Origin: an uncultured Pseudomonadota bacterium
GTDB lineage: Bacteria > Myxococcota_A > UBA796 > SXON01
Direction of reading: 5' to 3'
Length of the DNA: 64,000 bases
Assembly: GCA_903959175.1 (NCBI GenBank)
Contig: CAJBVW010000449.1
Span: 12,959 to 76,958, forward strand
Below, piece after piece: positions 3,406 to 43,751 of the stretch. Below the pieces are notes generated by a model. It saw only the letters and a list, made by a program, of their open reading frames with translations, had not been told where the DNA came from and made no database searches. Position 1 is the first letter of the stretch, and each line of letters begins with the position of its first letter. The position numbers were made by a program, and so were the translations under genes.

Positions 3406-4151
3406 CAGACGTTCAGCGCGCCGCCGCAGATCGAGATCGCCTGGCCGTTCACGCCGCGCGCGTCGTCCGAGGCGAGGAACACCGCCATCGACGCGACCTC
3501 GGAGGCCTCGAGGAAGCGGCGCTGGGGGTTCTGCGCTTCGAGCTCGGCGCGCACTTCGTCGAGCGTGCGGCCGGTCTTCTCGACGATGTTCTGGATCGCG
3601 CCGGTGAGCAGCGGGCTGTCCACGTAGCCGGGGCAGATCGCGTTGACCGTGACGCCCTTGTCGGCGTACTCGGCCGCGAGGGCGCGGGTGAGCCCGATGA
3701 GGCCGTGCTTGGAGGCGCAATAGGCCGCGAGGTACGGGTAGCCCTTGAGGCCGGCCACGCTCGCGATGTTGATGATTCGGCCCTTGCCGCGGCTCGCCAT
3801 GCTCGGGAGCACCTTGAGCGCGCAGAGGAACGAGCCGGTGAGGTTCACCTTGAGGTGCTCCTCCCAGACGCGCACGTCCGTCTTGAGGACGGGCGAGGAC
3901 CGGGCGACGCCGGCGTTGTTGATGAGGATGTCCACCGGGCCGGCGGCCATGAAGGCGGCCTCGACGCTGGCGGGCTCGCCGACGTCGCAGCGGATGCCGT
4001 AGCCCCCGACCTCGTCAGCGATCTTCTCCACCTCGTCCCGGGTGCGGGAGAGGACGGTGATGCGGTCCCCCATGGCGGCGAAGCGCCGCGCGATCTCGGC
4101 GCCGATCCCGCGCCCCCCACCGGTGATGACAACGTGCCTGCGAATCGCCAT
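3405..4151 (-). CDS. short-chain dehydrogenase/reductase (SDR)
   Basis: MAIRRHVVITGGGRGIG (TGxxxGIG), NNAG, and YxxxK (YCASKHG). GGAGA lies 5 nt upstream of the ATG at 4151. Confidence 0.9.
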   Translation of the reverse strand: MAIRRHVVITGGGRGIGAEIARRFAAMGDRITVLSRTRDEVEKIADEVGGYGIRCDVGEPASVEAAFMAAGPVDILINNAGVARSSPVLKTDVRVWEEHLKVNLTGSFLCALKVLPSMASRGKGRIINIASVAGLKGYPYLAAYCASKHGLIGLTRALAAEYADKGVTVNAICPGYVDSPLLTGAIQNIVEKTGRTLDEVRAELEAQNPQRRFLEASEVASMAVFLASDDARGVNGQAISICGGALNV

Positions 4152-4290
4152 ACGGTCTCCGAGCCGCACGGTATATGCGCGACCGAGCATGGCGTGTCAA
4201 GGCGGAGGTCCGCCGTTGCGCGGTCCTACCTGCCTCGTTGGCGAGCGAACGTCCGGTGCGGCGGCGCGCGACCCCGGGGCGCCGCCGTCC

Positions 4291-5139
4291 CTAGGCGCGC
4301 TCGTCGAGGAAGGCGGCGAGGTGCGCGGCGAGGGCGAGCGGCGCGTCCATCTGGGTCATGTGGCCGGCGCCGGGCACGTCCGCCACGGTGAGGTCCGGGA
4401 CCGCGGCCTCGAGCTTCGCCACCTCGGCGGCGGGGAACAACGAACGCTCCGGGTGGACGGAGAGCACGGGGCAGCGGATCGCGCCGAGGAAGGTGAGGTG
4501 CTGGTCCTGGCGGTACGGAGCCGCCGCGCGCACGAGGTGGCGCGGGTCGTAGCGCCACGCGAACCCGCCTTCGACCGCGCGGGTCCCGCGCTCGGCGAGC
4601 TCCCTCGCCCACGCGGGGTCCAGGCCGGTCCAGGTGGCGCGGAGGCGCTCCGCCGCGGCGTCGATCGTCGGGTGAGCGCGGTGCGCGCGCACGCGGCGCA
4701 GGCCGTCCAGGAACTCGACCATGCGCCCCCGCGCGCCGGCGCCGCCGTCGGGGATGCCGATGCCGTCCACCACGACGAGGCGCGTCACCGCGTCCGGCCG
4801 GGCCCCGGCGTACAACGTGGCGATCGTGCCGCCCATCGAGTGGCCCACGAGGCGCACGCACCCGCCGAGGTGGGCGACCAACGCGTCGACGTCCGCGACG
4901 TATTCGGGGAAGTGGTAGCTCTCGCCGGGGCCGCACCACGCGGAGTGGCCGTGGCCGCGCAGATCGAGCGCGACGACGTGACCGGTGAGGCGCTCGGCGA
5001 CGCGCGCCCAGCTCCCGGCGTGGTCGAGGAAGCCGTGGAGGAGGACGACCGGCGGGGATCCGTCGGGCTCACCCCACTCGAGGGCGGCGAAGGAGAGGCC
5101 GCGGAGCGTGTACGCGGCGTCGCGCGCGGCGCGGGTCAA
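4291..5139 (-). CDS. alpha/beta-fold hydrolase
   Basis: VVLLHGFLDH, nucleophile elbow GHSMGG, C-terminal GAGHMTQ. TTG at 5139 overlaps the stop of the upstream gene (TTGA). The start call is an inference. Confidence 0.8.
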   Translation of the reverse strand: MTRAARDAAYTLRGLSFAALEWGEPDGSPPVVLLHGFLDHAGSWARVAERLTGHVVALDLRGHGHSAWCGPGESYHFPEYVADVDALVAHLGGCVRLVGHSMGGTIATLYAGARPDAVTRLVVVDGIGIPDGGAGARGRMVEFLDGLRRVRAHRAHPTIDAAAERLRATWTGLDPAWARELAERGTRAVEGGFAWRYDPRHLVRAAAPYRQDQHLTFLGAIRCPVLSVHPERSLFPAAEVAKLEAAVPDLTVADVPGAGHMTQMDAPLALAAHLAAFLDERA

Positions 5140-6647
5140 ACGTCCCTCGCGAGGCGGAGGCCGATCTTGAGGCGGCCCGAGAGCGTGTGGGAGAGCCGGA
5201 GGGACGCCCGGATCGGGCCGTGCGCGAAGCTCCCGCCCATCACGACGCGGCCGCGGTCGGTGCGGTCCCGGTAGTACCCGGACGTGCACTCGAAGGCGTC
5301 GCCGATGGCGCCGTAGAGGCCGTATTGCGGGTACGTCGTCACCGGGGCGGTGCGGTCGCGACCGGAGTCGGCGGTGTTGGCGCGGGCGGACTCGAAGCGG
5401 TCGCCCCAGGGGAAGTGGCGACCGTCCCAGCCGCGCACCGCCTTCTCCCACTCGTCGGCGGAGGGCAAGCGCGCGCCAGCCCAGGCGGCGTAGGCGTCGC
5501 AATCCTCCGGGCGGAGCATCATCACCGGGTGGTCCGCGAGGTCCGGCGGGCACCGGCCGCCGCGCCAGTGCGAGAGCCGCTCGACCCAGGGCGGGCGCGG
5601 CCCGGTGGCGTCGAGGAAGCCCTGGAATTGACCGTTCGTGACGGCGTAGCGGGCCAGCGCGACGGGGTGGGCGAGGTGCTTGACGACCAGCGGGCGCTCG
5701 TCCGCGCCACGGGCGCCGCCGCTCACGAAGTTACCGCGGGGGACGTGAAGCCATGTGTCGTCGCTGGTCCAGCCGTCGAAGGCACCCGCGAGGAAGGCGC
5801 GCATGGCGCCGGAGAGGACGAGGCCGGTGAGGTCGTCGGGATCGCCCCCCTGGGCCGCTGCGAGCCGGCGCGCGAGACGACGCGCCACGAGGGCGTCGTA
5901 GAGCGAGCGGTGCCCGAAGCGCCAGCGGCCGTCGAGGTCCTCGACGAAGAGGCGCGCGGGGAGGCCCGCGAGGTCCTCGGCGCGGAAGGATCCGCCCTCG
6001 TGGGAGCGGTCGGGGTCGACGAGGGAGGCCCACGCGAGGGCCTCGAGCGCGTAGACTGCGCCGGTGCCAGAGAGGTGGTCCTCCACGAGCGCGGCGGGGG
6101 TGTCGCCGCGGGCCCCGCGCAACCACAACGACAGGAGCACGGCGTTGTCCGCGCAGAAGGCGGGGGCGCCCTCCGGCACCGGGTACGGCGCGATCTCGAC
6201 CATCGGGAGGTGGAAGCAGTCGACCTGGCCGGGGTCGGGCTCGGCGGCGTCGGTGCGGACGTGGCCGGGGCGGCTGGTGAGCACCCAGCGGCGCACGCGG
6301 GCGGTCAGCCACGCGACGAGCTCGGCGGCGCCGTCGTCGTCAGGGCGGCCGATCTCGTCGAGGCCGTCGAGGATGGCGGCGTCGGAGCCGCCGAGGAGCG
6401 CGGCGAGGGTGGCGGCGCGGTCCTTCGCGCGGGCGACCACGCGGAGCGGCACGACGGGCACGCCGACGCGGGCGCCGACGCGACGGGCGAGCTCCGTCTT
6501 CCCGGAGCCGAACACGCCGAGGAGCACGAGTCCGGTGCCGTCGCGGATGGCGGCCTCGACGAGGGGCTCCAGCGCGCCGGCGGGCGTGCGCACGATCGCG
6601 CCGCCCTCGCGCCGGATCCAGGTGCCGGTGGGGGGGATCCAGTCCAT
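5136..6647 (-). CDS. NACHT-like P-loop NTPase fused to a C-terminal FGE/sulfatase-modifying-factor (FGS) domain
   Basis: Walker A GVFGSGKT and Walker B AAILDGLDE (NACHT-type hhhhDGhDE). The C-terminal part carries FGE-fold motifs (RYAVTNGQF, LPSADEWEKA, VMGGSF). Start is at MDWIPP (6647) by frame arithmetic. Confidence 0.75.
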   Translation of the reverse strand: MDWIPPTGTWIRREGGAIVRTPAGALEPLVEAAIRDGTGLVLLGVFGSGKTELARRVGARVGVPVVPLRVVARAKDRAATLAALLGGSDAAILDGLDEIGRPDDDGAAELVAWLTARVRRWVLTSRPGHVRTDAAEPDPGQVDCFHLPMVEIAPYPVPEGAPAFCADNAVLLSLWLRGARGDTPAALVEDHLSGTGAVYALEALAWASLVDPDRSHEGGSFRAEDLAGLPARLFVEDLDGRWRFGHRSLYDALVARRLARRLAAAQGGDPDDLTGLVLSGAMRAFLAGAFDGWTSDDTWLHVPRGNFVSGGARGADERPLVVKHLAHPVALARYAVTNGQFQGFLDATGPRPPWVERLSHWRGGRCPPDLADHPVMMLRPEDCDAYAAWAGARLPSADEWEKAVRGWDGRHFPWGDRFESARANTADSGRDRTAPVTTYPQYGLYGAIGDAFECTSGYYRDRTDRGRVVMGGSFAHGPIRASLRLSHTLSGRLKIGLRLARDV

Positions 6648-6717
6648 GCGGGGGGCTAACGGATCGGCGGGGAGCGGGCGCGGTGCGGGCGGCCTCGGCA
6701 ACGGGTACGTGGCCGCG

Positions 6718-7350
6718 ATGCTGACGATCGATCCGCACCCCCTCCTCGCGCTGTCCGCCTTCACCGCGACCTTCCCCGCGCCGCTCGGCACGGTCGCCAC
6801 CCCGCCCGACGTGCTCGCGCTCCTCCAGGACGGCGCGGCCGCCCCCATGAGCAGCGACGACGCGACGCGCGCCGCCGTGCGGGACCTGTTGCGTCACGGC
6901 GGCTTCAAGCCCACCGGCCGCAGCAAGCCTGCGAGCGAGTACCTCATCAAGGCCGCCGCGGAGGGCATCCTCGGCCCCATCAACGCCGTGGTGGACGCGT
7001 GCAACGCCGTCTCCCTCCACAGCGGCCTCCCCATCAGCGTCGTCGACCTCGACCGCGCCGTGCTCGGTGACGTGGGCCTGCGCGTGGGCCTCGCCCCGGC
7101 GGACGCGACCTACGTCTTCAACGCCTCCGGCCAGACCATCGACGTCGCCGGGCTCCTCTGCCTCTTCGACGCCGAGGGCCCGTGCGCCAACGCGGTGAAG
7201 GACGCGCAACGCACGAAGACCACGCCCGAGACGCGGCGCACCCTCGTGATCGTGTGGGGATGCACCGCCGTCGGGGACCGCGTCGCCCGCGCCGCGGCCT
7301 GGTACCGCGCGCTCCTCGAGCAGGCCGGCGCGACGACCGCGGCGATGTGA
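6718..7350 (+). CDS. B3/B4 tRNA-binding-domain protein (PheT B3/4-like)
   Basis: 210-aa product containing RHGGFKPTGRSKPASEYL and NAVVDACNAVSL, which I recognise as B3/4-domain motifs. ATG at 6718. Confidence 0.65.
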   Translation: MLTIDPHPLLALSAFTATFPAPLGTVATPPDVLALLQDGAAAPMSSDDATRAAVRDLLRHGGFKPTGRSKPASEYLIKAAAEGILGPINAVVDACNAVSLHSGLPISVVDLDRAVLGDVGLRVGLAPADATYVFNASGQTIDVAGLLCLFDAEGPCANAVKDAQRTKTTPETRRTLVIVWGCTAVGDRVARAAAWYRALLEQAGATTAAM

Positions 7351-7354: not shown

Positions 7355-8629
7355 TCAGCCCCGGGCGCGCGCGCGCTGGGCCCGCGGCCACCGCGGCGTG
7401 AGCCGGCCGCTCACCACCATGCGGAGCGGCGTCGGGCTCGGCTCGCTCAACAGCTCGCGCGCCGCGCCGGCGAGGGCGGGCTCGCTGCGGGCCGCGCGGG
7501 CCACGACGTCGGCCTCGTGGGCGTGCCCCTCGGCGCGCAGCACCTCGATGGCCATGCGCCACGCGACGGGGAGGGTCGGGCGCGTGGAGAGCACGGTGCG
7601 GGCGCGCTCCGCGGCCACCCGGAGGCCCAGCATGTGGGAGAGCCACGCGCGGTAGCCCTCCCACAGGGCCGCGCGGTCGGGGTGGTGCGCCGCGAGCCAC
7701 TCCGCGGCCTCGAGGCCGATCCCGGCGAGCCGCACGTCGGCGGTGCCGAGCGCGACGAGGAGCTGCGCGGCGTCCTGGCGGGCCTCGGGGTCGAGGTCGG
7801 CCGCGCGCCAGAAGGCCCCGGCCGCCTCCGCGGCGTCGCGTCCCTCGTCCACGAGCGCGCGGAGGGTGTCGGCCTTCAGCTCGAGGGCCGCCAGCGCGTG
7901 CTCGGGCTCCACCCGCGCGTACTCGTGGTCGAGCGCGAAGAAGTAGGTGCTCACCCCCGCGTCCTGGAGCCGACCGAGCGCGGTGCCCGCCGGCGCCCAC
8001 GCCGCCTCCGAGGGGCTCCCGAGGACGCGCCGCTGGTAGCGCTCTGCCGACAACCAGCCGGTGCGGCGGGTCGGCACGAGGTCCACCGCGTCCCGGCTCA
8101 GGGGCGGCCGACGTGTGCGCCGGGGATCCCGCGCCGCGCGGACCTGCGTGGGCACGTCCTCCGTGGCGAGGAAGCGGCGCCAGCGCGCGGCCTCGGCGTG
8201 GCCCGGGCACGCCGCCAGCGCCTCGTCGATCGCGGCCGAGGCCCCCTCGATCTGCGCGAGCTGCACGAGGAGGGCGGCGAGGTCGCACCCGGCGTCCGCG
8301 CGCAGACCCGGGCGCCCACCGCCGCGGAGGCGTCGCATCGCGCGCTCGATTCCGTCCGGGCAGGTGAAGGTGGCGAGGGCGTCGGACTCGGCGCCGCCGA
8401 GGCGGAGGGCCTGCTCGGACAGACGCTCCGCCTCGACGGGGCGGCCGAGCACGAAGAAGGCGCGCGAGGCGACGGCGTACACGTCCCCCCGTGCGCCGAG
8501 CGGGGTGATGGCCTCGGCGGCCTCGAGCGCGTCGAGGACGGCGCCGGGCTCGCCGAAGGTGGCGGGCATGTAGAGGTCCCACCAGGGGTCCACGGGCAGG
8601 AGGTCGGGGAGCAGGGAGCGGTCGTTCAC
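7355..8629 (-). CDS. hypothetical protein, Ala/Leu-rich, probably all-helical repeat
   Basis: 424-aa ORF with high GC3 and non-degenerate composition. No family recognised. Confidence 0.6.
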   Translation of the reverse strand: MNDRSLLPDLLPVDPWWDLYMPATFGEPGAVLDALEAAEAITPLGARGDVYAVASRAFFVLGRPVEAERLSEQALRLGGAESDALATFTCPDGIERAMRRLRGGGRPGLRADAGCDLAALLVQLAQIEGASAAIDEALAACPGHAEAARWRRFLATEDVPTQVRAARDPRRTRRPPLSRDAVDLVPTRRTGWLSAERYQRRVLGSPSEAAWAPAGTALGRLQDAGVSTYFFALDHEYARVEPEHALAALELKADTLRALVDEGRDAAEAAGAFWRAADLDPEARQDAAQLLVALGTADVRLAGIGLEAAEWLAAHHPDRAALWEGYRAWLSHMLGLRVAAERARTVLSTRPTLPVAWRMAIEVLRAEGHAHEADVVARAARSEPALAGAARELLSEPSPTPLRMVVSGRLTPRWPRAQRARARG

Positions 8630-8835: not shown

Positions 8836-10488
8836 ATGCTCGCCCTCATCCTCCTCGCCCCGCACGCGCACGCGGCCTGCGCCATCGAGCAGGACAAGCG
8901 CCCCGACGGCGTCACCGTCGTCGTGCGCGCGCTCGACGAGCCCGTGGGCTGCCGCCGGGTCACGCTCGAGTCCGACGCGCCGCTCACCGTCACCGCGACG
9001 GTGTGGTCCCCCGAGGCCCGTCGCAGCACGCCGAAGCAGGACCACCTGCGCCAGCTGCCCGGCGGCGGCTGGGAGATCGCGGTGCCCGAGCTCGTCGTCG
9101 GCGGGCGCGCGGTGTTCGAGGTCGGCGTGCCCGGGAGCGCGCTCGTGGTGCGCCTCGGCGCGCCGGAGACGGTCACGCTCGTCGGCCTCGTCCACGAGAC
9201 CCGCGTGCTCACGCTCGACGCGCGGCACCCCGGCTGGGGCTTCGCTGACGGCGCCCGCGCCGAGACCCGCGTGGAGCTGCGCTTCACGCCGCCGGCGGAG
9301 GGCCCCACCCAGATCGTGCCCGTCCCCGCCGGCGCCACCGACCTCTACGCGCCGGGCCTCGACCCCGTGCCCCTCGGCGTGCGCGTCCCCGCCGGCGTCC
9401 CCGAGGTCACCATCCGCTACACCGTGCGCGGCGCCGAGCCCCTCGCCGCTCGCACCCTCCCGCCGGGCACGCTCACGCTCGTCGGGCCCCCCACGCCCGA
9501 GGGCGCCGTCGCGTGGGTCCCCTCCCCCGGCCCCGGCGTCACCGTCTCCCCCGTCGAGAACGGCGTCCGCTTCGACGCCCCGAGCGGCGGTGTGGCGCGG
9601 TGGCGCGTCGCGACCGCGGGCGCGGACAAGGTGGTCCCCGACGTGGCGACCTACCTCAAGGGCCTCGACTGGCGCTTCGCGCGCCAGAGCCTCCCGGAGC
9701 CGGCCGTCCCCGTCGCCATCCGCGACCGCCTCGACCGCCCCAACCTCCTCCGCGAGCTCCTCACCGAGGTCCAGTCCCTGCGCGACGGCGCGCTCCCCGG
9801 CGCCGAGCCGCTCCGGCCCCGCCAGCTCAACGGCGCGTGGCGCTCCGGGTGGGCCACGCAGGTGGAGCGCGCGCTCGTCTTCCACCGCTTCCTCGGCCAG
9901 GAGAAGTTCCGCGCGGGGTGGGTGCTCACCGGCGCGGACGCCGATCCCGTCTCGCTCACCGGCTTCGACACGATGCTGGTCGTGGCGCGCGTGGGCGAGG
10001 ACAACCTGTGGGTCGACCCCGCCTGCGCCGTCTGCGCGCCCGGCGAGATCGGCACGCGGTGGCTCGGCAAGCCCGCCATCGGCGCGCTCCCGGAGGGGAT
10101 GACGGCCGTGCCCCGCGCCTCCGGCCTGCTCACGCGCGCCCTGACCCTCAACGGCGAGCAGTTCCAGGCCGACTTCACCGCCGTCGGCGCCGCCGCCCTC
10201 TGGCTCCGCGAGCGCATCGTGGGCGTGGAGCCCGGCGTCCGCGCCGACCGCCTCGGGGAGGCCCTCGGCATGCCCGGCGCCGCCCTCGTCGCGTCCGCCG
10301 GCTTCGGGGAGGCCGGCGCGCCGGTGACCGTGTCGCTGACGGGCCCGCGGCCCCCGCACGATCCCTTCGCGGACGCGACGCCCTGGGACGGCGGCTGGAC
10401 GGACGCGCTCGCGCCGTCCCCCGCCTCCCCCGCCTCCCCGGCCTCCGCCCCGGCCCCCGCGGATCCGGCGGTCGCTCCCGCCCCTTGA
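8836..10488 (+). CDS. secreted hypothetical protein, possibly a degenerate transglutaminase-like fold
   Basis: Signal-like N-terminus MLALILLAPHAHAA. The central segment SGWATQVERALVFHRFLGQEKFRAGWVL...FDTMLVV...LWVDPA resembles a transglutaminase core, but Cys and His are not at the expected positions. Pro/Ala/Ser low-complexity tail. Confidence 0.55.
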   Translation: MLALILLAPHAHAACAIEQDKRPDGVTVVVRALDEPVGCRRVTLESDAPLTVTATVWSPEARRSTPKQDHLRQLPGGGWEIAVPELVVGGRAVFEVGVPGSALVVRLGAPETVTLVGLVHETRVLTLDARHPGWGFADGARAETRVELRFTPPAEGPTQIVPVPAGATDLYAPGLDPVPLGVRVPAGVPEVTIRYTVRGAEPLAARTLPPGTLTLVGPPTPEGAVAWVPSPGPGVTVSPVENGVRFDAPSGGVARWRVATAGADKVVPDVATYLKGLDWRFARQSLPEPAVPVAIRDRLDRPNLLRELLTEVQSLRDGALPGAEPLRPRQLNGAWRSGWATQVERALVFHRFLGQEKFRAGWVLTGADADPVSLTGFDTMLVVARVGEDNLWVDPACAVCAPGEIGTRWLGKPAIGALPEGMTAVPRASGLLTRALTLNGEQFQADFTAVGAAALWLRERIVGVEPGVRADRLGEALGMPGAALVASAGFGEAGAPVTVSLTGPRPPHDPFADATPWDGGWTDALAPSPASPASPASAPAPADPAVAPAP

Positions 10489-10636
10489 CACGGGGCGCCT
10501 TGTCGTGGCCCCGGGCCCCGCGGGCGGATAGGCCGACAGCCGCCGGCAGGGCGGGAACCCCCGCGCCTCGGCCGCGCCCGCCCGTCGCCCCCCGGTGATG
10601 GAGCTGGAACCTCCACTCTGACCGGGAGTTTCGGGT

Positions 10637-12406
10637 TTGACCCTCTTCGAGCTGTTGACGGCGGGCAAGATCGACGAGTTCAACGCGCGCCGCGGGCAGC
10701 GCGTCACCCTCGACTTCTTCGCGGCGGATCTCTCGGGGCTGGCGCTCGCCGGAGCCGACCTCTCGGGCGCGAACCTGGAGAAGGCGGACCTCTCCGGCGC
10801 CGACCTCACCGGGGCGGTGCTGGCGAAGGCCAACCTCTGCGGCGCGGACCTCACCGGCGCCAACCTCACGAACTGCGTCGCCATCAAGGCGCGGCTGCGC
10901 GAGGCCTACCTCGGCAAGGCCAACGCGGCGGGCGCCGAGTTCTCCGGCGCGGACTTCTGCGAGGCCGACCTCACCGGCCTCGTGGCCGACCAGGCCCGCT
11001 TCGCCGGCGCGCGCTTCAAGGACGCCGTCCTGCACCAGGCCATCCTCACCGCGTGCGACTTCAACGAGAGCCGCTTCGCGAACGCCGACCTCCGCGACGC
11101 CGACCTCACCGGGTCCAAGCTCGTCAACGCCGAGCTCCTCCGCGCGAACGCCACCGGCGCGCGCCTCGTCCGCGTCGACCTCTCCGGGGCGCGCATGGCG
11201 GGCGCGGTGCTCAAGGGCGCGCATCTCGCGGGCGCCAACCTGACCGGCGCCGACCTCTCCGGCGTCGACCTCACCGGCGCCGACCTCACCGGCGCGAACC
11301 TCGAGCGCGTCGACCTCTTCGACGTCATCGCCGAGCCCGAGACCCTCAAGCTCGCCAAGGCCGCCCCCGGCGTGGAGGCAGCGCCCGCCGCCGCCACCGT
11401 CGCCACGGACGTCGACCTCCACTTCGAGGACCCCTCCGTTGCCGTGTCCGCGGCGGGCTGCGCGGTCTTCTGGGAGAACGCCGACGGGGAGGACGCCTTC
11501 AACCTCCGCGCGATCGTCTCCACCTCGGCGAAGCCCTTCCGCGGCCTCTCGCAGGCCCTCGCCATCCCGATCGACCAGGTGCTCTCCCGCGCCGTGCTCC
11601 CCTCCCCCACCGGGTTCGAGTGCGCCGTGTTCCTCGACCGCCCGGCCGGGGTCGAGCTCGCCGTCCTCTCGCTGGACCGCGCCGGCAACTTCGGCCCCCC
11701 GCGCACCGTGCGCCTCGGGTACACGCCCGTCGTCAAGCCCGTGCTCGTACCGGACGGCGAGGGCTTCCTCATCTACGGCATCGGCCGCCAGGGCGCGCTC
11801 TCGGTCCACCGCTTCGACGGCACCGTGCTCCACGAGCTCATGCGCGCCCCCGCGGGCACCTACCGCGGCTTCTGCGGCCGGCTCGACCCGATCCTGCTCG
11901 GCAAGGGCGGCACCGTCGCCGCCGTGCGGAAGGACGGCATCGGCCGCCTCATGTCCGCCCCGACCGGCTACCCGGGCCGCCTCACCTCCGCCGCCTACCG
12001 CGCCGAGGGCGAGCAGATCGCGCTCGCGTGGGTCGGCAAGGGCGAGAAGGGCCTGCGCTTCCAGGCGCTCGGCGTCGACACCGAGGCCACGCGCCTCGAC
12101 ATCAAGTCGGACATCGGCGCGATGGACCTACGTTCTGTTGGCGACCGTTGGCTGCTCGTCTACACGCGCGAAGCGACGGGCGACACCGACATCACCCTCC
12201 CGATGGCCGTATGGCTGCCGGGCGGCAAGCCGTTCCCGCTGCTCGACGGCCCCGACCGCATCGACATCGAGGACGTGCGGCTCGTCCCCGGCGACAAGCC
12301 CCGCGTCGCGATGTTGACCCTCGGCGAGGACCTCGTCGTGGTCGAGGTCGGCGCGGAGAGCGCAACGATCGTCGCGCGCTTCGGTGAGCTCGTCATCGGG
12401 GCGTAG
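10637..12406 (+). CDS. pentapeptide-repeat protein with a roughly 350-aa unassigned C-terminal domain
   Basis: About 45 consecutive A(D/N)LxG-type pentapeptides (ADLSGANLEKADLSGADLTGAVL...). TTG start at 10637. Confidence 0.85.
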   Translation: MTLFELLTAGKIDEFNARRGQRVTLDFFAADLSGLALAGADLSGANLEKADLSGADLTGAVLAKANLCGADLTGANLTNCVAIKARLREAYLGKANAAGAEFSGADFCEADLTGLVADQARFAGARFKDAVLHQAILTACDFNESRFANADLRDADLTGSKLVNAELLRANATGARLVRVDLSGARMAGAVLKGAHLAGANLTGADLSGVDLTGADLTGANLERVDLFDVIAEPETLKLAKAAPGVEAAPAAATVATDVDLHFEDPSVAVSAAGCAVFWENADGEDAFNLRAIVSTSAKPFRGLSQALAIPIDQVLSRAVLPSPTGFECAVFLDRPAGVELAVLSLDRAGNFGPPRTVRLGYTPVVKPVLVPDGEGFLIYGIGRQGALSVHRFDGTVLHELMRAPAGTYRGFCGRLDPILLGKGGTVAAVRKDGIGRLMSAPTGYPGRLTSAAYRAEGEQIALAWVGKGEKGLRFQALGVDTEATRLDIKSDIGAMDLRSVGDRWLLVYTREATGDTDITLPMAVWLPGGKPFPLLDGPDRIDIEDVRLVPGDKPRVAMLTLGEDLVVVEVGAESATIVARFGELVIGA

Positions 12407-12440
12407 GAGCCCAGCGGGCGACGAGGAGCAGGCTCATCCC

Positions 12441-14681
12441 CTACCGATATCCGGCGCGCCTCCGAATCCACCAGGAGATCGACAGGAAGAGCCCGAAGAG
12501 GAGCGGGACCAGGGGAGCGGCGTAGAGGCGGGTCTCGGCGCGGTCACGGACGCGACGGCCGGCGTCGGGGTCGCGAAGCGGGGCGGCACGCTCGCCGGCG
12601 GCGACGTACTGCCCGCCCGTGCGCGCGGCGAGGGTGCGGAGGAACGCGCTGTCGGGCTCCACCTCTTCGAGCTCGGGGTCCCGCGTCGTGACGGCGAAGG
12701 CGGTCTGGGCCTCGCCCACCGTGGCGCCGGAGGCCCCGTGCGCGACGACCTTGACCCGGTGCGCGCCGCGATCCGACGCGGGGAGCGTGAGCGCGACGCT
12801 GCCGTCCGCGCCGGTGCGGCCCTCGAGCTTCTCGCGGCCGCCGGGGCCGTCCACCGTGATGTCGACCTTGGCCTCGGCGACGGGCGCGAAGGAGACGTTG
12901 CGCACCTTCGTCGTGATGCGCACTTCTTCGCCGATCTGGTAGTTGTCGCGGTTCGCCTCGACGACGACGGGCTGATCCTCGGGGTCCCCGATGAGCCAGC
13001 GCGCGGCGTTCTTCCAGAAGCGGAGGTAGGCCTGGTTGCCGCGCCCCTCCCCCGCCTCGGCGAAGGACCAGCGCCAGGACGAGTCGCCGAGGAGCGCCAT
13101 CGAGCGGCCCGCGCCGTACTCGCCGACCGCGAGCACGGGGAGCGGCTTGTCGTCCGGGCCCTTGAGGGTCGGGTGCTCGAGGAGCACGGCCGCGCCTTGC
13201 GACGCGCCGCGGGAGAGGTTCAGGCCGTCGAGCTGGGAGAGGCCGGCCCACGCGCGCGTGTTCTCGGTGGGCTCGCCGACGAGCTGCGTGATGGGGTGGC
13301 GGGCGCCGCCCTCGGTGAGGCGGGGGGCGAAGGCGCCGGGATCGATGGCCTCGCCGGAGACGCCGAGCTGGACGGGGAGGATGTCGGCGATGGGGGTGCC
13401 GGCGTAGGCGCCGAGGTCGAAGCTGCGATCTCCGCCCATCATCACGAAGGCCTTGCCGTTCTCCTTCACGTAGCGGGCGATGTTGCCGAGGAGCTCGTTC
13501 GCGTTGTTGTCGAAGTAGGGCCGGTAGTCGAAGTTCTGGAAGATGACGAGGTCGAAGGACCAGAGCTCGCTGGAGAAGAGCTTCTCGTAGGGGAACTGGA
13601 TGAGCGAGAGCTCGGAGGAGTCCCAGCCGGCGCCCATGTCGCGGTCGGTGCGGAGGATGAAGAAGGAGACGAGGTCGACCGCGGGGTCCTCCTTGAGGAA
13701 GAGCCGCAGGAACTTTTGGTCGAACGAGGGGGATCCGCAGACCTGGAGCACGCGCACGCGGTCGCGCACGACGCGCACGGCGAGGGAGAGCGCGTTGTTG
13801 GCGGGCACGGCGTCCCCCGCGGTGACGGGGGTGGCGGCCTCGTAGATGAAGCGGCCGACGGCCTCGGGGGTGACCTCGAAGCGGGCAGTGCCGCGGCCCT
13901 CGGCGTCGAGCGCGACCGTCTTTTGGCCGACGGGCTGGCCGTCCCGCGTGAGGGTGACGGGGACCGAACGCGCGGAGGTGCCGACGGCGCGCACGTCCAC
14001 CTCGATGGCGAAGGGGGCGCGGAGGAACGCGAAGCCGCCCGCGCGCACGTCGGTGACGGACACGTCGGTGCGGCCGCCGTCCTCGCCGATCTGGTAGACG
14101 GTGAGCGGGCCGTTGAGCCGCGGGAGCACGGCGTCGGCCTCGCCGAGGACCCGGCGCCGGAGCCCGCCGCGGTCGATGCCGTCGGAGAGGACCGCGACGC
14201 CCTCGAGCTTCTCGCCGGCGTAGCGCTGCGCCACGGCCGCGAGCGCGCCGCCGAGGTCGGTGTCGCCGGCGTCGTAGGTGATCGGGACGCCGGGGCGCAG
14301 GCCGTCTCCGAAGGCGAAGACCTCCGTGCCCGGGGGCAGCGCGGCGAGGCGCGCGGCGACCTGGTCAGAGCGCGGCGTGCCATCTCCCTCCAACACCTGC
14401 ATGGACCGCGAGGCGTCGACCAGGGCGACGTAGCGGCCGGCCTCGACGCGGTCTCCCTCCTGGATCCACACCGGGCCCGCCACGGCGCCGAGGAGCACCC
14501 CGGCCGCCGCGGTGAGGAAGGCGACCTCGGCGATGCGGGCGCGTCCTCGCGGGCGGGGGATCGCCGCGAGGATCAGCGCTACGAGCACGCCGAGCGTCGC
14601 GACGCCGATGATCCACGGCTCGGTGGTGAAGACGAGGCGGCCGCCGGGGCCGCAGCACCCGCCGAGGAGCCAGTCCATCAT
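12441..14681 (-). CDS. membrane protein with a VWA-like region and a GATase1-like (DUF1355-type) domain
   Basis: MMDWLLGG start overlaps the DUF4159 stop (ATGA). N-terminal TM helices, VALVDASRSM, VLQVCGSPSFDQKFLRLFLK...GKAFVMMGGDRSF, and a C-terminal TM helix. Confidence 0.75.
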   Translation of the reverse strand: MMDWLLGGCCGPGGRLVFTTEPWIIGVATLGVLVALILAAIPRPRGRARIAEVAFLTAAAGVLLGAVAGPVWIQEGDRVEAGRYVALVDASRSMQVLEGDGTPRSDQVAARLAALPPGTEVFAFGDGLRPGVPITYDAGDTDLGGALAAVAQRYAGEKLEGVAVLSDGIDRGGLRRRVLGEADAVLPRLNGPLTVYQIGEDGGRTDVSVTDVRAGGFAFLRAPFAIEVDVRAVGTSARSVPVTLTRDGQPVGQKTVALDAEGRGTARFEVTPEAVGRFIYEAATPVTAGDAVPANNALSLAVRVVRDRVRVLQVCGSPSFDQKFLRLFLKEDPAVDLVSFFILRTDRDMGAGWDSSELSLIQFPYEKLFSSELWSFDLVIFQNFDYRPYFDNNANELLGNIARYVKENGKAFVMMGGDRSFDLGAYAGTPIADILPVQLGVSGEAIDPGAFAPRLTEGGARHPITQLVGEPTENTRAWAGLSQLDGLNLSRGASQGAAVLLEHPTLKGPDDKPLPVLAVGEYGAGRSMALLGDSSWRWSFAEAGEGRGNQAYLRFWKNAARWLIGDPEDQPVVVEANRDNYQIGEEVRITTKVRNVSFAPVAEAKVDITVDGPGGREKLEGRTGADGSVALTLPASDRGAHRVKVVAHGASGATVGEAQTAFAVTTRDPELEEVEPDSAFLRTLAARTGGQYVAAGERAAPLRDPDAGRRVRDRAETRLYAAPLVPLLFGLFLSISWWIRRRAGYR

Positions 14682-15454
14682 TCGAGCCGCCCTTCGCGGA
14701 TGAGCTGCTCGACGTGGGCCTGATCCTGCTTGTAGTTGGAGGTGAGGCCGTACATCAAGAGGTTGATCGCCAGCTTGACGGCCTCGCGGCGCTGCAGCTC
14801 GCCGTTGGGCGTGCAGGGCAGCGCGTCCGACCCGTCGGCGCGGCGATCGAGCGCGCCCGAGAGGTCGTCCCGGCTGTAGAGGAGCGGGTGCATGCTTCCC
14901 TGCGCCACGCCCTCGAGCGTGCGATGCAGCGCAACGCGGCCCACCGGCTCGGAGATGAGGAAGAAGGCGCGGTAGACGGAGTGGTCCGTCGGGAGCGTGG
15001 TGAGCGCGCGCGTCGGGAAGAGCTTGCGGACCATCGCGCGGACGCTCGTGTCGAAGTCGCTCTGGCGCTCGCCCGTCGTGTCGTCGATGAACAGGAAGCC
15101 GCCGTAGGACAGGTAGCGCACGAGCTGTTGCGACGCGGCCTCGGTGAGCGGGGTGAGGGCGTCGTTGCCGGCGAGGACGGCGAAGGGGTGGCGGAACAGC
15201 GCGGGATCGTCGGGGGCGAGCTGGACGACGCGCGGCTCGGCCTCGACGGAGGTGCTCTGGAGGAGCTCGAAGAGCAGCCTCGTCCACGCCTCGGGGCGCG
15301 AGATCGTGCCGCGGGAGAGCTGGATCTCCGCGATGTCGACCTCGGACGCGGGGCCGACGGCGCCGGCGCGCAGGGCGAAGGGCAGCGCGAGCGCGCTGGT
15401 GAGGAGGGTGCGGCGGGTGAGGCCGGCCCCGACGCGAGGGGGGCTACGCAGCAT
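14678..15454 (-). CDS. DUF4159-like protein with a Tat-type signal
   Basis: MLRSPPRVGAGLTRRTLLTSALALPFALRA, then HPFAVLAGNDALTPLTEAASQQLVRYLSYGGFLFIDD. The start overlaps the upstream stop by 11 nt. Confidence 0.75.
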   Translation of the reverse strand: MLRSPPRVGAGLTRRTLLTSALALPFALRAGAVGPASEVDIAEIQLSRGTISRPEAWTRLLFELLQSTSVEAEPRVVQLAPDDPALFRHPFAVLAGNDALTPLTEAASQQLVRYLSYGGFLFIDDTTGERQSDFDTSVRAMVRKLFPTRALTTLPTDHSVYRAFFLISEPVGRVALHRTLEGVAQGSMHPLLYSRDDLSGALDRRADGSDALPCTPNGELQRREAVKLAINLLMYGLTSNYKQDQAHVEQLIREGRLE

Positions 15455-17492
15455 CGTCGCTCCGGCCGCGACCGAGGGCGGCGGCGCCGAGGAGGAGGGC
15501 GACACCGGCGCCGAAGAGGGGGATATCGAGGTCGAAGGTGCGGCGGAGGCGCTCGGGGGCGATCTTCGCCTGGGCCTCGACGAGGCTCGTGCCCCGCCGC
15601 ACGTCCGACTCGCCGACCGCGGTGTTGACGGCCACCCACGCGAGCGGCGGCAGGCCCGTCGGCACCGCGGCGTACGCGCCGGGGACCTCGGGGGTGAAGG
15701 AGAGCGAGCCGATCGCGCGCTCGGAGGCGACGATCCCGCCGTCGGGGCCGGTCACCTCGGGGTCCCCCCCGGCGGGCGGGAACGCGAGGGAGACGCGGGC
15801 CCCGACCGCCCCGTTCGCCGTGGACGCGGCGCCGCCGGCCTCGCCGCCGAGGTAGCCGGTGAGGCGCTGGACGAACGGCATGAACACGGCCTGGAGCGGC
15901 AGGTTGGACCAGCCGAGATCGAAGGTGGAGGTCCACAGGAGGACGCGGCCGTTGCCGATGCGGCGCTCGAGGAGGGCGGGCACGCCGTCGTCGTAGGTGA
16001 GCAAAACGCTCACGTCGTCGCCGGCGGGGGGCTCGGTGGTCATGACGCGGCGGGTGTGGACGCGGGTGAAGCTCTCGCGGCCGGCGCGGGCGAAGACGCG
16101 GAAGAGGTCGAGGCCCTCGACGTCGGGCGGGCGGAGCGGGGCGCCGTCGTCCGACTCAAGCGAGACGAGGTCCCGCGTCTTGCGGAGCGGGGCCGGGAGG
16201 AGCGAGGCGAGGGCGCTGTCGTAGCGCTCGGCCGTGACGTTGTCGCCCATGCCGAGGACGAGCCCGCCGCCGCGGCGGACGAAGTCGACGAGGAGCGGCG
16301 CGTAGGGCGCGGGGTCCGCCACGTTGGCGAGGAAGGCGACGCGGTGCGTGGCGGGGTCGAGGCGGGAGAGGCCGGAGGGGGACACCACGTCGACCGCGAT
16401 GCCGCCGGTGCCGCCCCAGGGCGCGAGCGCGCGTTCGAGGAAGTAGACCTCGGAGCGGGTGGGGGTGGAGCCGGGGTCGCCGTCGACGACGAGGACGCGG
16501 CTGGCGCCGATGCGGGGGAGGTGGAAGAAGCGGGCGTTGTCGAGGGGGAGGTCGGGGTCCTCGATCTCGACACGGGCGACGCCGCCCTCGGCCTGACGCG
16601 GCACGGTCACCCGGGACTCGGCGGTGCCGGGGCCGGCGTCCGTCGCGGCGGGGACGGGCACGAAGGTGTTGATGCGCGCGCCGTCGGGGAGGATGACGGC
16701 GGTGGGGACCTCGCGCGCGGCCGGGCCCCAGTTGGCGAGCTGGACGGTGACGGTGCCGCCCTCCAGGCCGTCTCCGTAGACGGCGTCGATCGGGGCGACG
16801 TTGCGGCGGTCCTCCCCGCCGTAGACGCGCGGGAGGATGGAGGAGCCGAGCGCGAGGAGGCGGTCGATGTCGCCGGCGCAGGCGTCGACCACGCCGGCGC
16901 CGGACTCGTCGGTGTAGACGAGGAGCTCGCCCGCAGCGCCCTCGAGCGTGGTGCGCGCGAGCGTGAAGGCGCCGTGCAGATCGGTGGTGCCGTAGGACTG
17001 CTCGACCGACTCGAGGAGCGAGGCGGCGAGGGAGGTGTCCGTCGTGAAGCCGGAGGTGACCATCGTGGCGGTGCCGCCGACGCGGATGACGGCGACGCGC
17101 ACGCCGGGGGCGAGGGAGCGGATCTGGGTCGCGGCGTCCTTTCGGGCGAGGGCGAAGGCGGGGTCGCCGGAGACGCGTTGGTCCATCGAGAGGGAGTCGT
17201 CGAGGAGGACGACGACGTTGCCGGTGCCGCCGAAGGTGGGCGGGCCGCCGAGCCACTGGGCCTGGGGGCGGGCGGCGGCGAGGATCACCGCGGCGATGGC
17301 GAACACGCGCGCGAGGAGGAGGAGGCGGTCCTGGAGGCGGCGGCGGCGGTGGAGCCGGCGCTGAAGGCGCTCGAGGAGGAGGAGCGCGCCGAAGGGGCGG
17401 CGGTCCCGCGGCTGGCGCTTGGAGAGGTGGGCGAGCACGGGGCCGGCGAGCAGGGCGAGGAGGCCCAGGACGGCGGGTGCCAACAGGACCAT
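15444..17492 (-). CDS. BatA-type protein (N-terminal double-TM aerotolerance domain plus VWA)
   Basis: MVLLAPAVLGLLALLAGPVLAHL...RLHRRRRLQD...VVVLLDDSLSM (MIDAS-like). The ATG lies 2 nt after the DUF58 stop. Confidence 0.8.
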   Translation of the reverse strand: MVLLAPAVLGLLALLAGPVLAHLSKRQPRDRRPFGALLLLERLQRRLHRRRRLQDRLLLLARVFAIAAVILAAARPQAQWLGGPPTFGGTGNVVVLLDDSLSMDQRVSGDPAFALARKDAATQIRSLAPGVRVAVIRVGGTATMVTSGFTTDTSLAASLLESVEQSYGTTDLHGAFTLARTTLEGAAGELLVYTDESGAGVVDACAGDIDRLLALGSSILPRVYGGEDRRNVAPIDAVYGDGLEGGTVTVQLANWGPAAREVPTAVILPDGARINTFVPVPAATDAGPGTAESRVTVPRQAEGGVARVEIEDPDLPLDNARFFHLPRIGASRVLVVDGDPGSTPTRSEVYFLERALAPWGGTGGIAVDVVSPSGLSRLDPATHRVAFLANVADPAPYAPLLVDFVRRGGGLVLGMGDNVTAERYDSALASLLPAPLRKTRDLVSLESDDGAPLRPPDVEGLDLFRVFARAGRESFTRVHTRRVMTTEPPAGDDVSVLLTYDDGVPALLERRIGNGRVLLWTSTFDLGWSNLPLQAVFMPFVQRLTGYLGGEAGGAASTANGAVGARVSLAFPPAGGDPEVTGPDGGIVASERAIGSLSFTPEVPGAYAAVPTGLPPLAWVAVNTAVGESDVRRGTSLVEAQAKIAPERLRRTFDLDIPLFGAGVALLLGAAALGRGRSDDAA

Positions 17493-18389: not shown

Positions 18390-19403
18390 TCAGCGCTCCG
18401 GGACCGTCTCGAGGAGGCGGCCCACGATGTCGGCGGGGCGGAGCCCCTCGGCCTCGGCCGTGAAGTTGAGCAGGACGCGGTGCTGGAGGACGGCGGCGGC
18501 GACGCGCTTCACGTCTTTCTGGTCGGCGGTCTCGCGGCCCTCAAGGGCGGCGCGGACACGCGCGCCGAGCGCGAGGAACTGGCTGGCGCGGGGGCCGGCG
18601 CCCCACTGGACGTAGCGGCGGACGGCCTCGGGGGCGTTCGGGCCGGGGCGGGTCGCGCGGGCGAGGCGCACGGCGTACCGCGTCACGTCGTCGTTCACGT
18701 CCATCCGGCGCACCATCGCCTGCATGGCGAGGAGCGTGTCGCGGTCGAGCACGGGCTCGGGGGCGGGGCCCTCGTCGCCGATGGTGCGGTCCACGATCTC
18801 GATCTCCTCGGCCTCGGAGGGGTAGCCCACGTCGATCGAGAACATGAAGCGATCGAGCTGGGCTTCGGGCAAGGGGTAGGTGCCCTCCTGCTCGATGGGG
18901 TTCTGCGTCGCGAAGACGAGGAAGGGCGGGGCGAGCGGGTAGGTCTGGCCGCCGGCGGTGACCTTCCCCTCCTGCATCGCCTGGAGGAGCGCCGCCTGGG
19001 TGCGCGGCGGCGTGCGGTTGATCTCGTCCGCGAGGAGGAGGTTCGTGAAGATGGGCCCCTTCACGAAGCGGATCACCCGGCGGCCGGTGGCGCGGTCCTC
19101 CTCGAGGACCTCGGTGCCGGTGATGTCCGCCGGCATCAGGTCCGGCGTGAACTGCACGCGCCCGCTCTCGAGGCCGAGGGCCTGCGCGGTGGAGGTGACG
19201 AGGAGGGTCTTGGCGAGGCCGGGCACGCCGACGAAGAGGCAGTGCCCCCGCGCGAAGAGCGCGATGAGCATCTGCTCGACGACGTCGCGCTGGCCGACGA
19301 TGCGGCGGCCGATCTGCTCCTCCACGCGCGCGCGCACCTTGCCGAGCTGGTCGAACAGCGCGCCGTCGTCGAGGGGGGGGCCCGCGCCCAGGGGGGTCGT
19401 CAT
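18390..19403 (-). CDS. MoxR-family AAA+ ATPase
   Basis: [30 protein letters not shown] Walker A, LLADEINR Walker B, and typical MoxR length (337 aa). Confidence 0.9.
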
Positions 19404-39725: not shown

Positions 39726-40435
39726 CCCCCGGCTCCCTCCTCGGCCGCCTCGGCCGCCGCTGGCACCTCCGCCGCGCCCGCCGCCCCTACGTGCGCGCGT
39801 GGTCCGGCGGCCCGCTGATCGTCCTCCCCGGCGTGCTCGACCCCGTCGCCACCAAGGTCGGCGCGTGGCTCGCGGGCGTCGCCGCCGCGGAGTGCCGCCC
39901 CGGCGAGCGGTGGATCGACATGGGCTGCGGCACCGGCGTCGTCGGGCTGGCCCTCGCCGAGGCCGGCGCCGTCGTGACCGCCATCGACATCGATCCGGAG
40001 TGCGTCCGCGCCGCGCGCGCCAACGCCGCCCTCCTCGGCCGCACGCTGATCGTCCTCGAGAGCGACCTGTTCACCGCGCTCCCCGTCCCCGCCTCCCCCG
40101 CCGACCGCTTCGACCGCGTCGTCTACAACGTCCCCTTCTGGCCCGGCGAGCCCACCGACGCCACGGGCGCCCTCCGCCCCTTCGGCCGCGCGATGTACGC
40201 CGGCGCCGACTTCGCCGCGATCCGCGCCTTCGTCGCCGCCTTCCGGCCCTTCGCCCGCGAGGCGTGGGTCGTCCTCTCCGAGCACGGCGGCGACTTTCCC
40301 GCCGCCCGCGCCGCCCTCGGCACGGCCCGGCTCGTCACCCGCGCCCACGTCCGCGGCGAGTGGCTCTCCCTGTTCGCGCTCCGCGGGCCGCTCGGCTCCG
40401 AGGCCTCCGACGATCGGCAAGGCGGCGCCCGGTAA
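39722..40435 (+). CDS. class I SAM-dependent methyltransferase (HemK/PrmC-like, NVPF motif)
   Basis: GTG overlaps the murJ stop (GTGA). IDMGCGTGVVGLALA is motif I and VVYNVPFWP is an NPPY-like motif IV. Confidence 0.75.
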   Translation: MTPGSLLGRLGRRWHLRRARRPYVRAWSGGPLIVLPGVLDPVATKVGAWLAGVAAAECRPGERWIDMGCGTGVVGLALAEAGAVVTAIDIDPECVRAARANAALLGRTLIVLESDLFTALPVPASPADRFDRVVYNVPFWPGEPTDATGALRPFGRAMYAGADFAAIRAFVAAFRPFAREAWVVLSEHGGDFPAARAALGTARLVTRAHVRGEWLSLFALRGPLGSEASDDRQGGAR

Positions 40436-40513
40436 AGGGGGTCACCCCTGTTCGGGTAGCGGTCGCCCGTCCCCTTGGCTACCCTCTCGCTTCACGCACG
40501 CGGAGCAGGTCGG

Positions 40514-42112: not shown

Positions 42113-42195
42113 GGGTTCGGCGTCCTCTTCTTGGGGCGGGGCTCCGCCCCGCAACGCCCGGAGACACGCGGGGTCGATCGTTCCGCAGGAGCCTC

Positions 42196-42813: not shown

Positions 42814-42837
42814 ACTTCCTCAGCTCCGGAGCCCCGC

Positions 42838-43710: not shown

Positions 43711-43751
43711 GCGAGCGAGCGGATGCCCCCCCTCCTCCTCCCCGCCCCCCA

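Follow-up and report, generated by a model that had tools for sequence, protein, structure and literature searches.

The window analysed here, a 64,000-nucleotide stretch of contig CAJBVW010000449.1 from an uncultured Pseudomonadota bacterium, carries a pair of adjacent genes that we call gene A and gene B. Gene A encodes a small protein in which a NACHT-type nucleotide-binding oligomerisation (NOD) module is joined to a C-terminal domain of the formylglycine-generating enzyme (FGE)-sulfatase type (FGS), and gene B, directly downstream, encodes an alpha/beta-fold hydrolase; both the domain identities and the gene pair are matters of observation. The best explanation, to which we give about an even chance (roughly 0.5), is that gene A specifies a NACHT-FGS switch which recognises a conserved ligand and delivers its output in trans, the hydrolase being an autonomous enzyme that is possibly modulated by it. 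Ligand gating, oligomerisation and output in trans are probably properties of the gene A product, by analogy with the way in which STAND proteins work.

A NACHT-type NTPase with no fused effector

We placed the start of gene A at MDWIPP (503-aa product; open reading frame (ORF) 5136-6647, minus strand), since the alternative longer start, an ATG at 6848, would overrun the divergent B3/4-domain gene and close homologues all begin M[DST]W. An AlphaFold2 model of the full-length protein reached a pLDDT of 86 and a pTM of 0.85. Residue conservation was read from an alignment of 35 full-length homologues. The Walker A motif GVFGSGKT fits GxxGxGK[ST], and the Walker B motif AAILDGLDE fits hhhhDGhDE, with two acidic residues after the Asp; the key residues of both are invariant in the alignment (Table 1). 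Sensor 1 stands in the context WVLTSRPGH, and TSRP at this position is a NACHT signature; the signature motifs of the NACHT group were reportedly laid out by Koonin and Aravind in 2000 and by Leipe and colleagues in 2004. The winged-helix segment (RFGHRSLYDALVA) fits the conserved-His pattern F.H.S...[FY]L.A, and its RFGHRS pairs with DGKLTFGHQTLLDVLV of the Avs7 winged-helix region. Apo Avs7 (9N00) was also the best PDB sequence match of the family profile, the winged-helix FGH motif included.

A Pfam scan of 15 family members matched NACHT in 11 (best E 7.7e-6) and AAA_16 in nine, and several database homologues carry precomputed PF05729 matches. When the AlphaFold2 model of residues 1-296 (pLDDT 85.6) was searched with Foldseek, NOD2 came top (5irm, E 5e-9, query TM-score (TMq) 0.56), followed by NLRC4 (4kxf, TMq 0.61) and then NLRP3; the three spanned E 5e-9 to 1e-5 with TMq 0.47-0.61, whereas generic AAA+ proteins reached E ~1e-4 and TMq ~0.3 in the same search. 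A housekeeping AAA+ identity was thereby ruled out, the generic AAA+ proteins being clearly worse matches than the nucleotide-binding leucine-rich-repeat (NLR) proteins. The window protein itself scores 17.0 bits against Pfam NACHT (PF05729), below the cut-off of 26.7, so the assignment depends on the other evidence. As the motifs, the family-wide Pfam matches, the predicted fold and Avs7 as best PDB sequence match agree, the NTPase of gene A is a genuine NACHT-clade STAND.

No N-terminal effector or adaptor was found in the protein: the NOD module starts at about residue 26, Pfam gives no further domain, and in both the full-length and the N-terminal models a 25-residue beta-hairpin is all that stands ahead of the P-loop strand. 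After the winged helix, the model has about 30 mostly helical residues and then the FGS domain.

An FGS domain without the catalytic cysteines

Residues 297-501 match Pfam PF03781 (FGE-sulfatase) along positions 3-255 of its 255, with a score of 109.7 bits where the cut-off is 23.3 (E 2.5e-31), and the domain contains RYAVTNGQF, LPSADEWEKA and VMGGSF. Foldseek returned ToxD, FGE, EgtB and pFGE at E 5e-13 to 1e-10 with ToxD at rank 1, and ToxD, a protein of toxoflavin biosynthesis, was likewise the best PDB match by sequence (E 9.6e-17), ahead of pFGE, CalU17 and EgtB. The gene A product has no cysteine after residue 455. A MAFFT alignment was made with human FGE, whose sequence, including the Cu-binding Cys pair C336/C341, is taken by us to be correct; in it, C336 falls opposite Ala475, C341 inside a deletion, and H337 opposite His476. 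(A PDB search with the last 62 residues, meant to view the same region, gave nothing useful, and the MAFFT alignment was used instead.) Because the Cu-binding Cys pair is absent, the FGS domain is predicted to be non-catalytic in the FGE sense. Pfam also found no DinB-type iron-binding domain, as in EgtB, in the gene A product. Polar residues E401, D416, E453, R484 and H487 are invariant in the 35 homologues and H476 is near-invariant; the C-terminal stretch R[AG]SLRLSH.LSG.LK.GLRLA is among the most conserved parts of the family.

An earlier note, made from the sequence alone, had read the protein in much the same way. Both Walker motifs, the helical middle region and the three FGE-domain motifs that it listed are present, and its claims that the NTPase is of the NACHT type, that the FGE domain lacks its catalytic Cys pair and that there is no N-terminal effector all stand. 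The same note had pointed to a stop codon overlapping the TTG start of a GHSMGG hydrolase and to a divergent B3/4 gene 70 bp away, and both observations are accurate, the B3/4-domain gene starting at 6718 on the plus strand. The three points on which it had hung its proposal came out in its favour: the NTPase belongs to the STANDs, the Cys pair is not retained, and the hydrolase is co-conserved with the NTPase, as described below.

Linkage of gene A to a hydrolase gene

Gene B scores 81 bits against Abhydrolase_1 (cut-off 25.8), its best two PDB matches are 7al5 ('probable hydrolase', 6e-33) and 3qit ('Polyketide synthase', 3e-23), and Ser101 and His260 are invariant among 15 orthologues. By its GxSxG nucleophile elbow (GHSMGG), catalytic His and profile match, its product is an alpha/beta-fold serine hydrolase; Pfam found no adaptor domain in it. 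The TGA of gene A (5138-5136) overlaps the TTG of the hydrolase gene (5139-5137) within gTTTGA, and in relatives the junction is a 4-nt overlap (L081, L082) or 13 nt (L097).

All sequences compared come from metagenome-assembled genomes (MAGs), the loci are a sample, and only directly inspected loci were counted for linkage. The hydrolase gene lies directly downstream of gene A in 13 of the 16 loci having downstream sequence, and these loci fall in two deep clades. Clade 1 (the window, L001, L085, L097 and the P0139 locus; at least ~57% identity to the window protein) has the order NACHT-FGS, hydrolase, short-chain dehydrogenase/reductase (SDR), RidA, enoyl-CoA hydratase (ECH), a variable position, acyl-CoA dehydrogenase (ACAD) and acyl-CoA ligase; on the opposite side of the pair stand B3/4, orf424, orf550 and a pentapeptide-repeat gene. 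Clade 2 (L002-4, L081, L082, L089, L091, L092; ~40% identity) has NACHT-FGS, hydrolase and a PF08713 (AlkD-like HEAT) gene, mostly followed by a large orf550-related protein. Clade 3 (L083/84, L088, L090; 42-48% identity) has no hydrolase and an AlkD-like gene divergent upstream; downstream of gene A come an ABC ATPase (8-nt overlap with the gene A stop), an ABC-2 permease and a CPBP protease in L083 and L090, and PBP1A in L088. The surroundings are rearranged between clades 1 and 2, yet the order from gene A to hydrolase and the tight or overlapping junction are kept in 13/13 loci.

The proposal of a compact two-gene system thus holds as to the pair and is too narrow as to the number of genes, since the clade-2 pair opens a four-gene operon with the AlkD-like HEAT protein and the large protein; in L082 the four genes overlap (10001-11707, 11704-12540, 12540-13310, 13307-15580), and in L081 an RdgC gene sits between the hydrolase and AlkD-like genes. 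A contig scan with full-length alignment was useful for L001-L004 only: 76 of its 80 loci were FGE-only relatives, the FGE domain having supplied two of its three search patterns. Comparing 'longest contig' lengths between the NTPase and hydrolase hit lists had suggested that many hydrolases are unlinked, but this proved misleading, as inspection of P0139 and P0152 showed an NTPase gene upstream in both.

Family size and outside relatives

A word-indexed search gave 138 full-length homologues of gene A, all of 480-590 aa and all with the FGE domain; those with a source name all stem from MAGs of Myxococcota or 'Deltaproteobacteria'. In the same type of search, a profile of the NACHT part recovered the gene A family alone. 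When this profile was run exhaustively against 1.84 billion representatives, 11 clusters (50% identity) were found at E<=1e-30, and below these family clusters came a score gap and then 746 matches at E<=1e-10; the gene A family is thus a rare one. The outside relatives listed are mostly proteins of 700-1700 aa whose NOD module starts at about residue 150-500. The top ones have the architectures SIR2-NACHT-FGE, SIR2-iREase-NACHT-pentapeptide, TIR-iREase-NACHT-pentapeptide and Mrr-iREase-NACHT, and the top ten also include NACHT-WD40 and NACHT-HEAT. Residues 3-552 of P0052, a clade-2 member, align with 411-1004 of the SIR2-NACHT-FGE protein P0251 (26% identity, E 2e-36). P0251 has ~410 aa ahead of its NACHT, including a SIR2 domain that matches the PADLOC models for ThsA, LmuA and Dsr1; further top relatives add NA-iREase1.

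By sequence, then, the gene A family is the effector-less counterpart of conflict proteins in which SIR2, TIR or restriction endonuclease (REase) domains precede NACHT-FGS. As it aligns end to end with the NACHT-FGS part of P0251, it looks like an N-terminally truncated version whose ~410-aa effector region was lost or never present. No paralogue of gene A was found in the 64-kb window or at any locus examined.

Inheritance, constraint and loss

The gene A family is vertically inherited, core-like and under ordinary purifying selection. The SDR-RidA-ECH-ACAD flanks are syntenic among close relatives, and the window has a GC content of ~74% throughout with no compositional break around the gene pair. 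Between the window and L001, the ratio of nonsynonymous to synonymous substitution (dN/dS) was 0.21 for the NACHT part, 0.32 for the FGS part and 0.06-0.42 for neighbouring genes, as crude Nei-Gojobori estimates from genomes of ~74% GC. Identity between clades is 47-60% in the FGS domain and 31-45% in the NACHT part (mean distances 0.42 and 0.56), making the FGS domain the slowest-evolving part of the protein, the opposite of what a fast-evolving sensor would show. A blastn search of the FGS-coding DNA against the 64-kb window for the template repeat of a diversity-generating retroelement (DGR) gave noise only and no second copy.

Gene A has also been lost. Three lineages, L094, L095 and L096, have no NACHT-FGS gene; their hydrolase orthologues (73%, 68% and 52% identical) are still part of the SDR-RidA-ECH-ACAD cluster and nest inside clade 1 in the tree. 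The flanks of L094 are nearer to the window than those of L085, which keeps gene A, so the three absences are read as losses. The P0139 locus has the order TetR, a 306-aa gene, NACHT-FGS, hydrolase; L094 and L095 have TetR, fatty-acid desaturase, hydrolase, the NACHT-FGS gene missing between the last two. From this comparison of gene order, gene A was cleanly deleted in L094 and L095.

Signs of a defence role were sparse. Among 14 family and neighbourhood proteins, PADLOC gave nothing meaningful, the window protein matching IetA alone at E 0.005; P0052 and P0034 had no match at E<=0.001, and seven window neighbours and two L082 neighbours had none. The Pfam annotations of the flanks of 10 loci contain no known defence-gene family, and the viral contigs carry no relatives of gene A. 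An NCBIfam search did give a weak match of gene A to the NACHT antiphage protein EruA (3.6e-6). Several expectations of the earlier note therefore fared badly. Its anti-phage or conflict role is disfavoured by the PADLOC result, the flanks free of defence genes, the core-like synteny and the conservation of the FGS domain, and the defence-model search that it had suggested returned no meaningful match for the window protein; it had also suggested checking for a variable island, and close relatives have the flanking metabolic genes in common. The hydrolase as dedicated effector fits poorly with its retention in L094-L096 without the NTPase and with its absence from the clade-3 locus.

Proposed mechanism and alternative explanations

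In the mechanism that we favour, a ligand would be bound by the FGS domain, and binding would free an ADP-locked state held by the winged-helix His246, upon which the NACHT module would swap its nucleotide and then oligomerise. Because gene A carries no effector domain, the output would act in trans, and its likeliest targets would be the products of downstream genes whose start overlaps or nearly abuts the gene A stop, namely the alpha/beta hydrolase in two clades and the ABC ATPase with the CPBP protease in the third. Vertical, core-like inheritance, purifying selection, an FGS domain that is the most conserved part of the protein and the lack of a DGR in the window speak against a fast-evolving phage protein as ligand; most likely the ligand is a molecule that does not vary, be it endogenous, environmental or a feature conserved among invaders. 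The hydrolase would be an autonomous enzyme, as opposed to a dedicated suicide effector, which the switch may modulate.

Several points weigh against this explanation. The closest outside relatives of gene A are defence-type proteins, and an anti-phage role with a conserved phage ligand is possible. Congruence among the NACHT, FGS and hydrolase trees (distance correlations 0.85-0.89) speaks for the coupling of gene A to the hydrolase, but any two vertically inherited neighbours would be expected to show it; and clade 3 has no hydrolase at the locus. After the loss of gene A, the hydrolases of L094, L095 and L096 keep Ser101 and His260, and dN/dS is unchanged (0.32 for L094 vs L095, 0.29 for the window vs L001). 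Because catalytic residues and constraint hold after the deletion, the hydrolase has a function independent of the NTPase. The two products may be linked physically or through regulation, a putative link drawn from gene order and sequence.

The conventional alternative is a two-gene abortive-infection system in which the FGS domain sees a phage component, the NACHT module oligomerises and the hydrolase acts as a cell-killing esterase or lipase. Its attraction lies in the company that gene A keeps: the nearest relatives of its NACHT-FGS module have effectors of kinds common in defence proteins (SIR2, TIR or REase), three PADLOC defence models match the SIR2 domain of P0251, the EruA match is there if weak, and STAND-FGS proteins have been proposed in the literature as invader sensors. 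The co-conserved pair with overlapping junctions would also suit it, as would the presence/absence polymorphism of gene A, which L094 and L095 have lost from a slot that is conserved in other respects. We nevertheless regard it as unlikely, given that no PADLOC model matches the family members or neighbours tested, that flanks and viral contigs are equally silent, and that the family is inherited vertically between conserved flanks with a sensor more conserved than its NTPase and no DGR in the window. The supposed killer enzyme, moreover, has no adaptor domain, is kept without its sensor (L094-L096) under the same constraint (L094/L095) and does not occur at the clade-3 locus. That last set of facts would sit well with the adjacency being meaningless, the NACHT-FGS protein working alone or with unlinked partners (as a decoy, a neutralising binder or another regulator) and the clade-1 hydrolase belonging to a separate metabolic operon: it heads the SDR-RidA-ECH-ACAD-AMP-ligase cluster with or without gene A, its constraint did not change with the loss, clade 3 retains gene A alone, and the orf550-like and pentapeptide genes stay near even where gene A is gone (L094, L095), pointing to a general conservation of synteny. 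This, too, we doubt, since mere neighbours would not be expected to hold their order and tight junction in all 13 loci of clades 1 and 2 across ~40% identity and rearranged surroundings, and since the clade-2 hydrolase is not followed by the SDR cluster and shares an operon with gene A, overlapping it in L082.

Two further readings accept gene A as a working part of its operon. The more probable of them, though less so than either alternative above, makes it a domesticated NLR: an effector-less NACHT-FGS protein fixed in the core genome of a Myxococcota lineage, which would respond to a small molecule that does not vary, or to a sign of damage or of a toxin, in place of a phage protein, and act in trans on operon-encoded modules of a resistance type, these being the esterase with the AlkD-like HEAT protein in two clades and the ABC exporter with the CPBP protease in the third. 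The other, which we consider very improbable, would have the FGE-like domain as an enzyme of non-FGE chemistry (cf. EgtB, ToxD, CalU17) and the NACHT module regulating or scaffolding a small pathway that includes the hydrolase. The ranking of ToxD ahead of pFGE, CalU17 and EgtB in the PDB sequence search and at the top of Foldseek, the conserved polar residues (E401, D416, E453, H487, R484 and, nearly, H476) and the slow evolution of the domain would all be compatible with catalysis; the FGE Cys pair and the iron-binding DinB-type domain of EgtB are missing, however, no biosynthetic genes are consistently linked, and the close outside relatives are all of the NACHT conflict type, where FGS is regarded as a binding module.

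Comparison with known systems

NACHT joined to FGS is a published architecture (PMC7159879, PMC8195603, bioRxiv 10.1101/2022.07.19.500537, PMC13581612, PMC10907252). Like the SIR2/TIR/REase-NACHT-FGS conflict proteins (Kaur et al. 2021, PMC8195603; Kibby et al. 2022, bioRxiv 10.1101/2022.07.19.500537), gene A consists of a NACHT NOD module and then a single C-terminal FGS domain, but N-terminal effectors and adaptors are missing from its family, whose members keep to one architecture of 480-590 aa, are inherited vertically in core-like synteny and draw no PADLOC matches. The conflict proteins of the literature occur as several paralogues per genome with shuffled effectors, in contrast to the absence of a gene A paralogue from the window and the loci examined. 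With the DGR-diversified STAND-C-type lectin (CLec)/FGE 'antigen sensors' of multicellular bacteria (PMC10907252; Kaur et al. 2020, PMC7159879), gene A shares a STAND/NACHT NTPase and a C-terminal C-type-lectin fold of the FGE kind; it differs in that the window has no template repeat and that the C-terminal stretch, hypervariable in the DGR sensors, is among the most conserved in its family. NACHT-CLec proteins without an adaptor domain have been described, with a neighbouring enzyme proposed as the effector in trans (PMC10907252).

Avs7 (9N00) shares the STAND fold with gene A, and the P-loop and winged-helix FGH align at E 4e-4; Avs4 (8dgf) matches the NACHT model in Foldseek at E 2e-4. Sequence similarity to the Avs proteins is marginal, and these have fused nuclease or other effectors, large repeat sensors and defence contexts. 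Among animal NLRs, NOD2, NLRC4 and NLRP3 are the best structural matches of the predicted nucleotide-binding, helical and winged-helix domains. Animal NLRs have the Walker B DGhDE, TSRP and F.H.S motifs. Gene A differs from them in having no CARD, PYD or LRR, a sensor made of a single lectin-fold domain, and after the winged helix a ~30-residue linker that is too short for a helical domain of HD2 size. The FGS domain has the fold and the core motifs (LP[ST]..EWE, PWG) of FGE/SUMF1, pFGE/SUMF2, ToxD, CalU17 and EgtB. Like pFGE it would be non-catalytic in the FGE sense, as it differs from FGE by the missing Cu-binding Cys pair, and it stands apart from all five in being fused to a NACHT module. 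The gene A family differs from the published proteins in the lack of an effector or adaptor domain, the fixed architecture, the absence of diversification, the core synteny and the exchangeable operon partners (the hydrolase and AlkD-like protein, or else ABC and CPBP proteins).

A role as bacterial 'antigen receptors' has been put forward for STAND-FGS proteins, none of which has been characterised by experiment (PMC10907252). The gene A family offers a small (~500 aa), highly conserved and modelable NACHT-FGS protein with no fused effector and a defined operon partner. Should the coupling to that partner be real, it would be a minimal system for NACHT signalling in trans and for the question of the FGS ligand; should it not be, gene A would be a lineage-specific STAND with no assigned role. 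Being NLR-like and passed on vertically in the manner of a core gene, it bears on how often immune-type STANDs have been repurposed, and 391 of 589 STAND clades are not classed as defence-associated (PMC13581612). If the reading as a domesticated NLR were true, it would be a case of a bacterial NLR serving as a xenobiotic or stress sensor with exchangeable outputs in trans.

Other features of the locus

Table 1. Coordinates of the gene pair, its motifs and nearby genes in the 64-kb window.
Feature	Position	Strand	Basis or remark
Gene A, NACHT-FGS protein, 503 aa, no effector	5136..6647	-	ORF and translation; stop codon 5136-5138
NACHT NOD module, aa 1-296 (N-terminal beta-hairpin, nucleotide-binding domain, helical domain, winged helix)	5760..6647	-	Foldseek; Pfam in relatives
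Walker A GVFGSGKT, aa 44-51	6495..6518	-	G44, G47, G49, K50 invariant in 35 sequences
Walker B AAILDGLDE, aa 90-98, NACHT-style DGhDE	6354..6380	-	L93, D94, G95, D97, E98 invariant in 35 sequences
Sensor-1 motif TSRP, aa 124-127	6267..6278	-	T124, R126 invariant; S125, P127 >=90% conserved
Winged-helix His motif RFGHRS, aa 243-248	5904..5921	-	F244, H246, R247 invariant in 35 sequences
Cys-less FGE-sulfatase/FGS domain, aa 297-503	5139..5759	-	Pfam PF03781; Foldseek
Stop/start overlap (TTGA), gene A to hydrolase gene	5136..5139	-	Sequence gTTTGA
Gene B, alpha/beta-fold hydrolase, 282 aa, TTG start	4291..5139	-	Abhydrolase_1 E 1e-22
Nucleophile elbow GHSMGG, aa 99-104 of hydrolase	4828..4845	-	G99, H100, S101 invariant
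Divergent intergenic region, gene A/B3/4 gene, 70 bp	6648..6717	none	Coordinates of both genes
orf424	7355..8629	-	Marginal TPR-like matches; conserved in clade-1 synteny
orf550, uncharacterised protein	8836..10488	+	No Pfam or NCBIfam match
Pentapeptide-repeat gene	10637..12406	+	Clade-1 synteny

No sigma-70-like site was found in the 70-bp region between gene A and the B3/4 gene, and a scan of window positions 3900-6900 for promoters and terminators turned up nothing resembling a promoter and a single weak terminator-like sequence, which lies within gene B. As no terminator is recognisable in the 100 bp that separate gene B from the SDR gene (4191-4290), genes A and B may share a transcript with the SDR-RidA-ECH metabolic genes that follow. 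In some clade-1 genomes a TetR and fatty-acid desaturase pair lies just upstream of the NACHT-FGS/hydrolase slot (L094:8269-9984; L095:8270-9889; P0139 locus).

The AlkD-like HEAT-repeat gene (PF08713, 'DNA_alkylation') adjoins gene A in all clade-2 and clade-3 loci: in clade 2 it comes after the hydrolase gene, and in clade 3 it is upstream of gene A and divergent from it. It was seen in L002, L003, L004, L081, L082, L083/84 and L087-L092 (e.g. L082:12540-13310). It may be a more constant partner of gene A than the hydrolase; the 64-kb window has no such gene. In two of the three clade-3 loci a PilZ-domain ORF (142 aa, E 2.8e-5) lies on the same strand directly upstream of the NACHT-FGS gene (L083:9525-9953, L090:3283-3726), which hints at a link to cyclic di-GMP.

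Clade-1 and clade-2 loci have, within ~10 kb of gene A, either orf550 or a relative of 677-757 aa with a common C-terminal ~250 aa, and most of them have, within the same distance, a pentapeptide-repeat protein of 580-620 aa with an uncharacterised C-terminal half; clade-2 examples of these two kinds of gene are at L082:13307-15580 and at L081:14621-16654 and 18742-20595. Both kinds of gene are still present in L094 and L095 after deletion of the NTPase gene, and in NACHT proteins related to gene A pentapeptide repeats serve as a sensor fused to the NTPase. Pfam, NCBIfam and PDB searches of orf550, its 757-aa relative, orf424 and the AlkD-like protein gave no function beyond PF08713. The orf424 product evolves fast, with 74% identity to L001, about 38-41% to L085 and dN/dS of up to 0.8. 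Farther along the window, at 40001-44000, GC falls to 0.66-0.69 against about 0.72-0.77 in the rest, and this segment may be foreign or otherwise atypical DNA.

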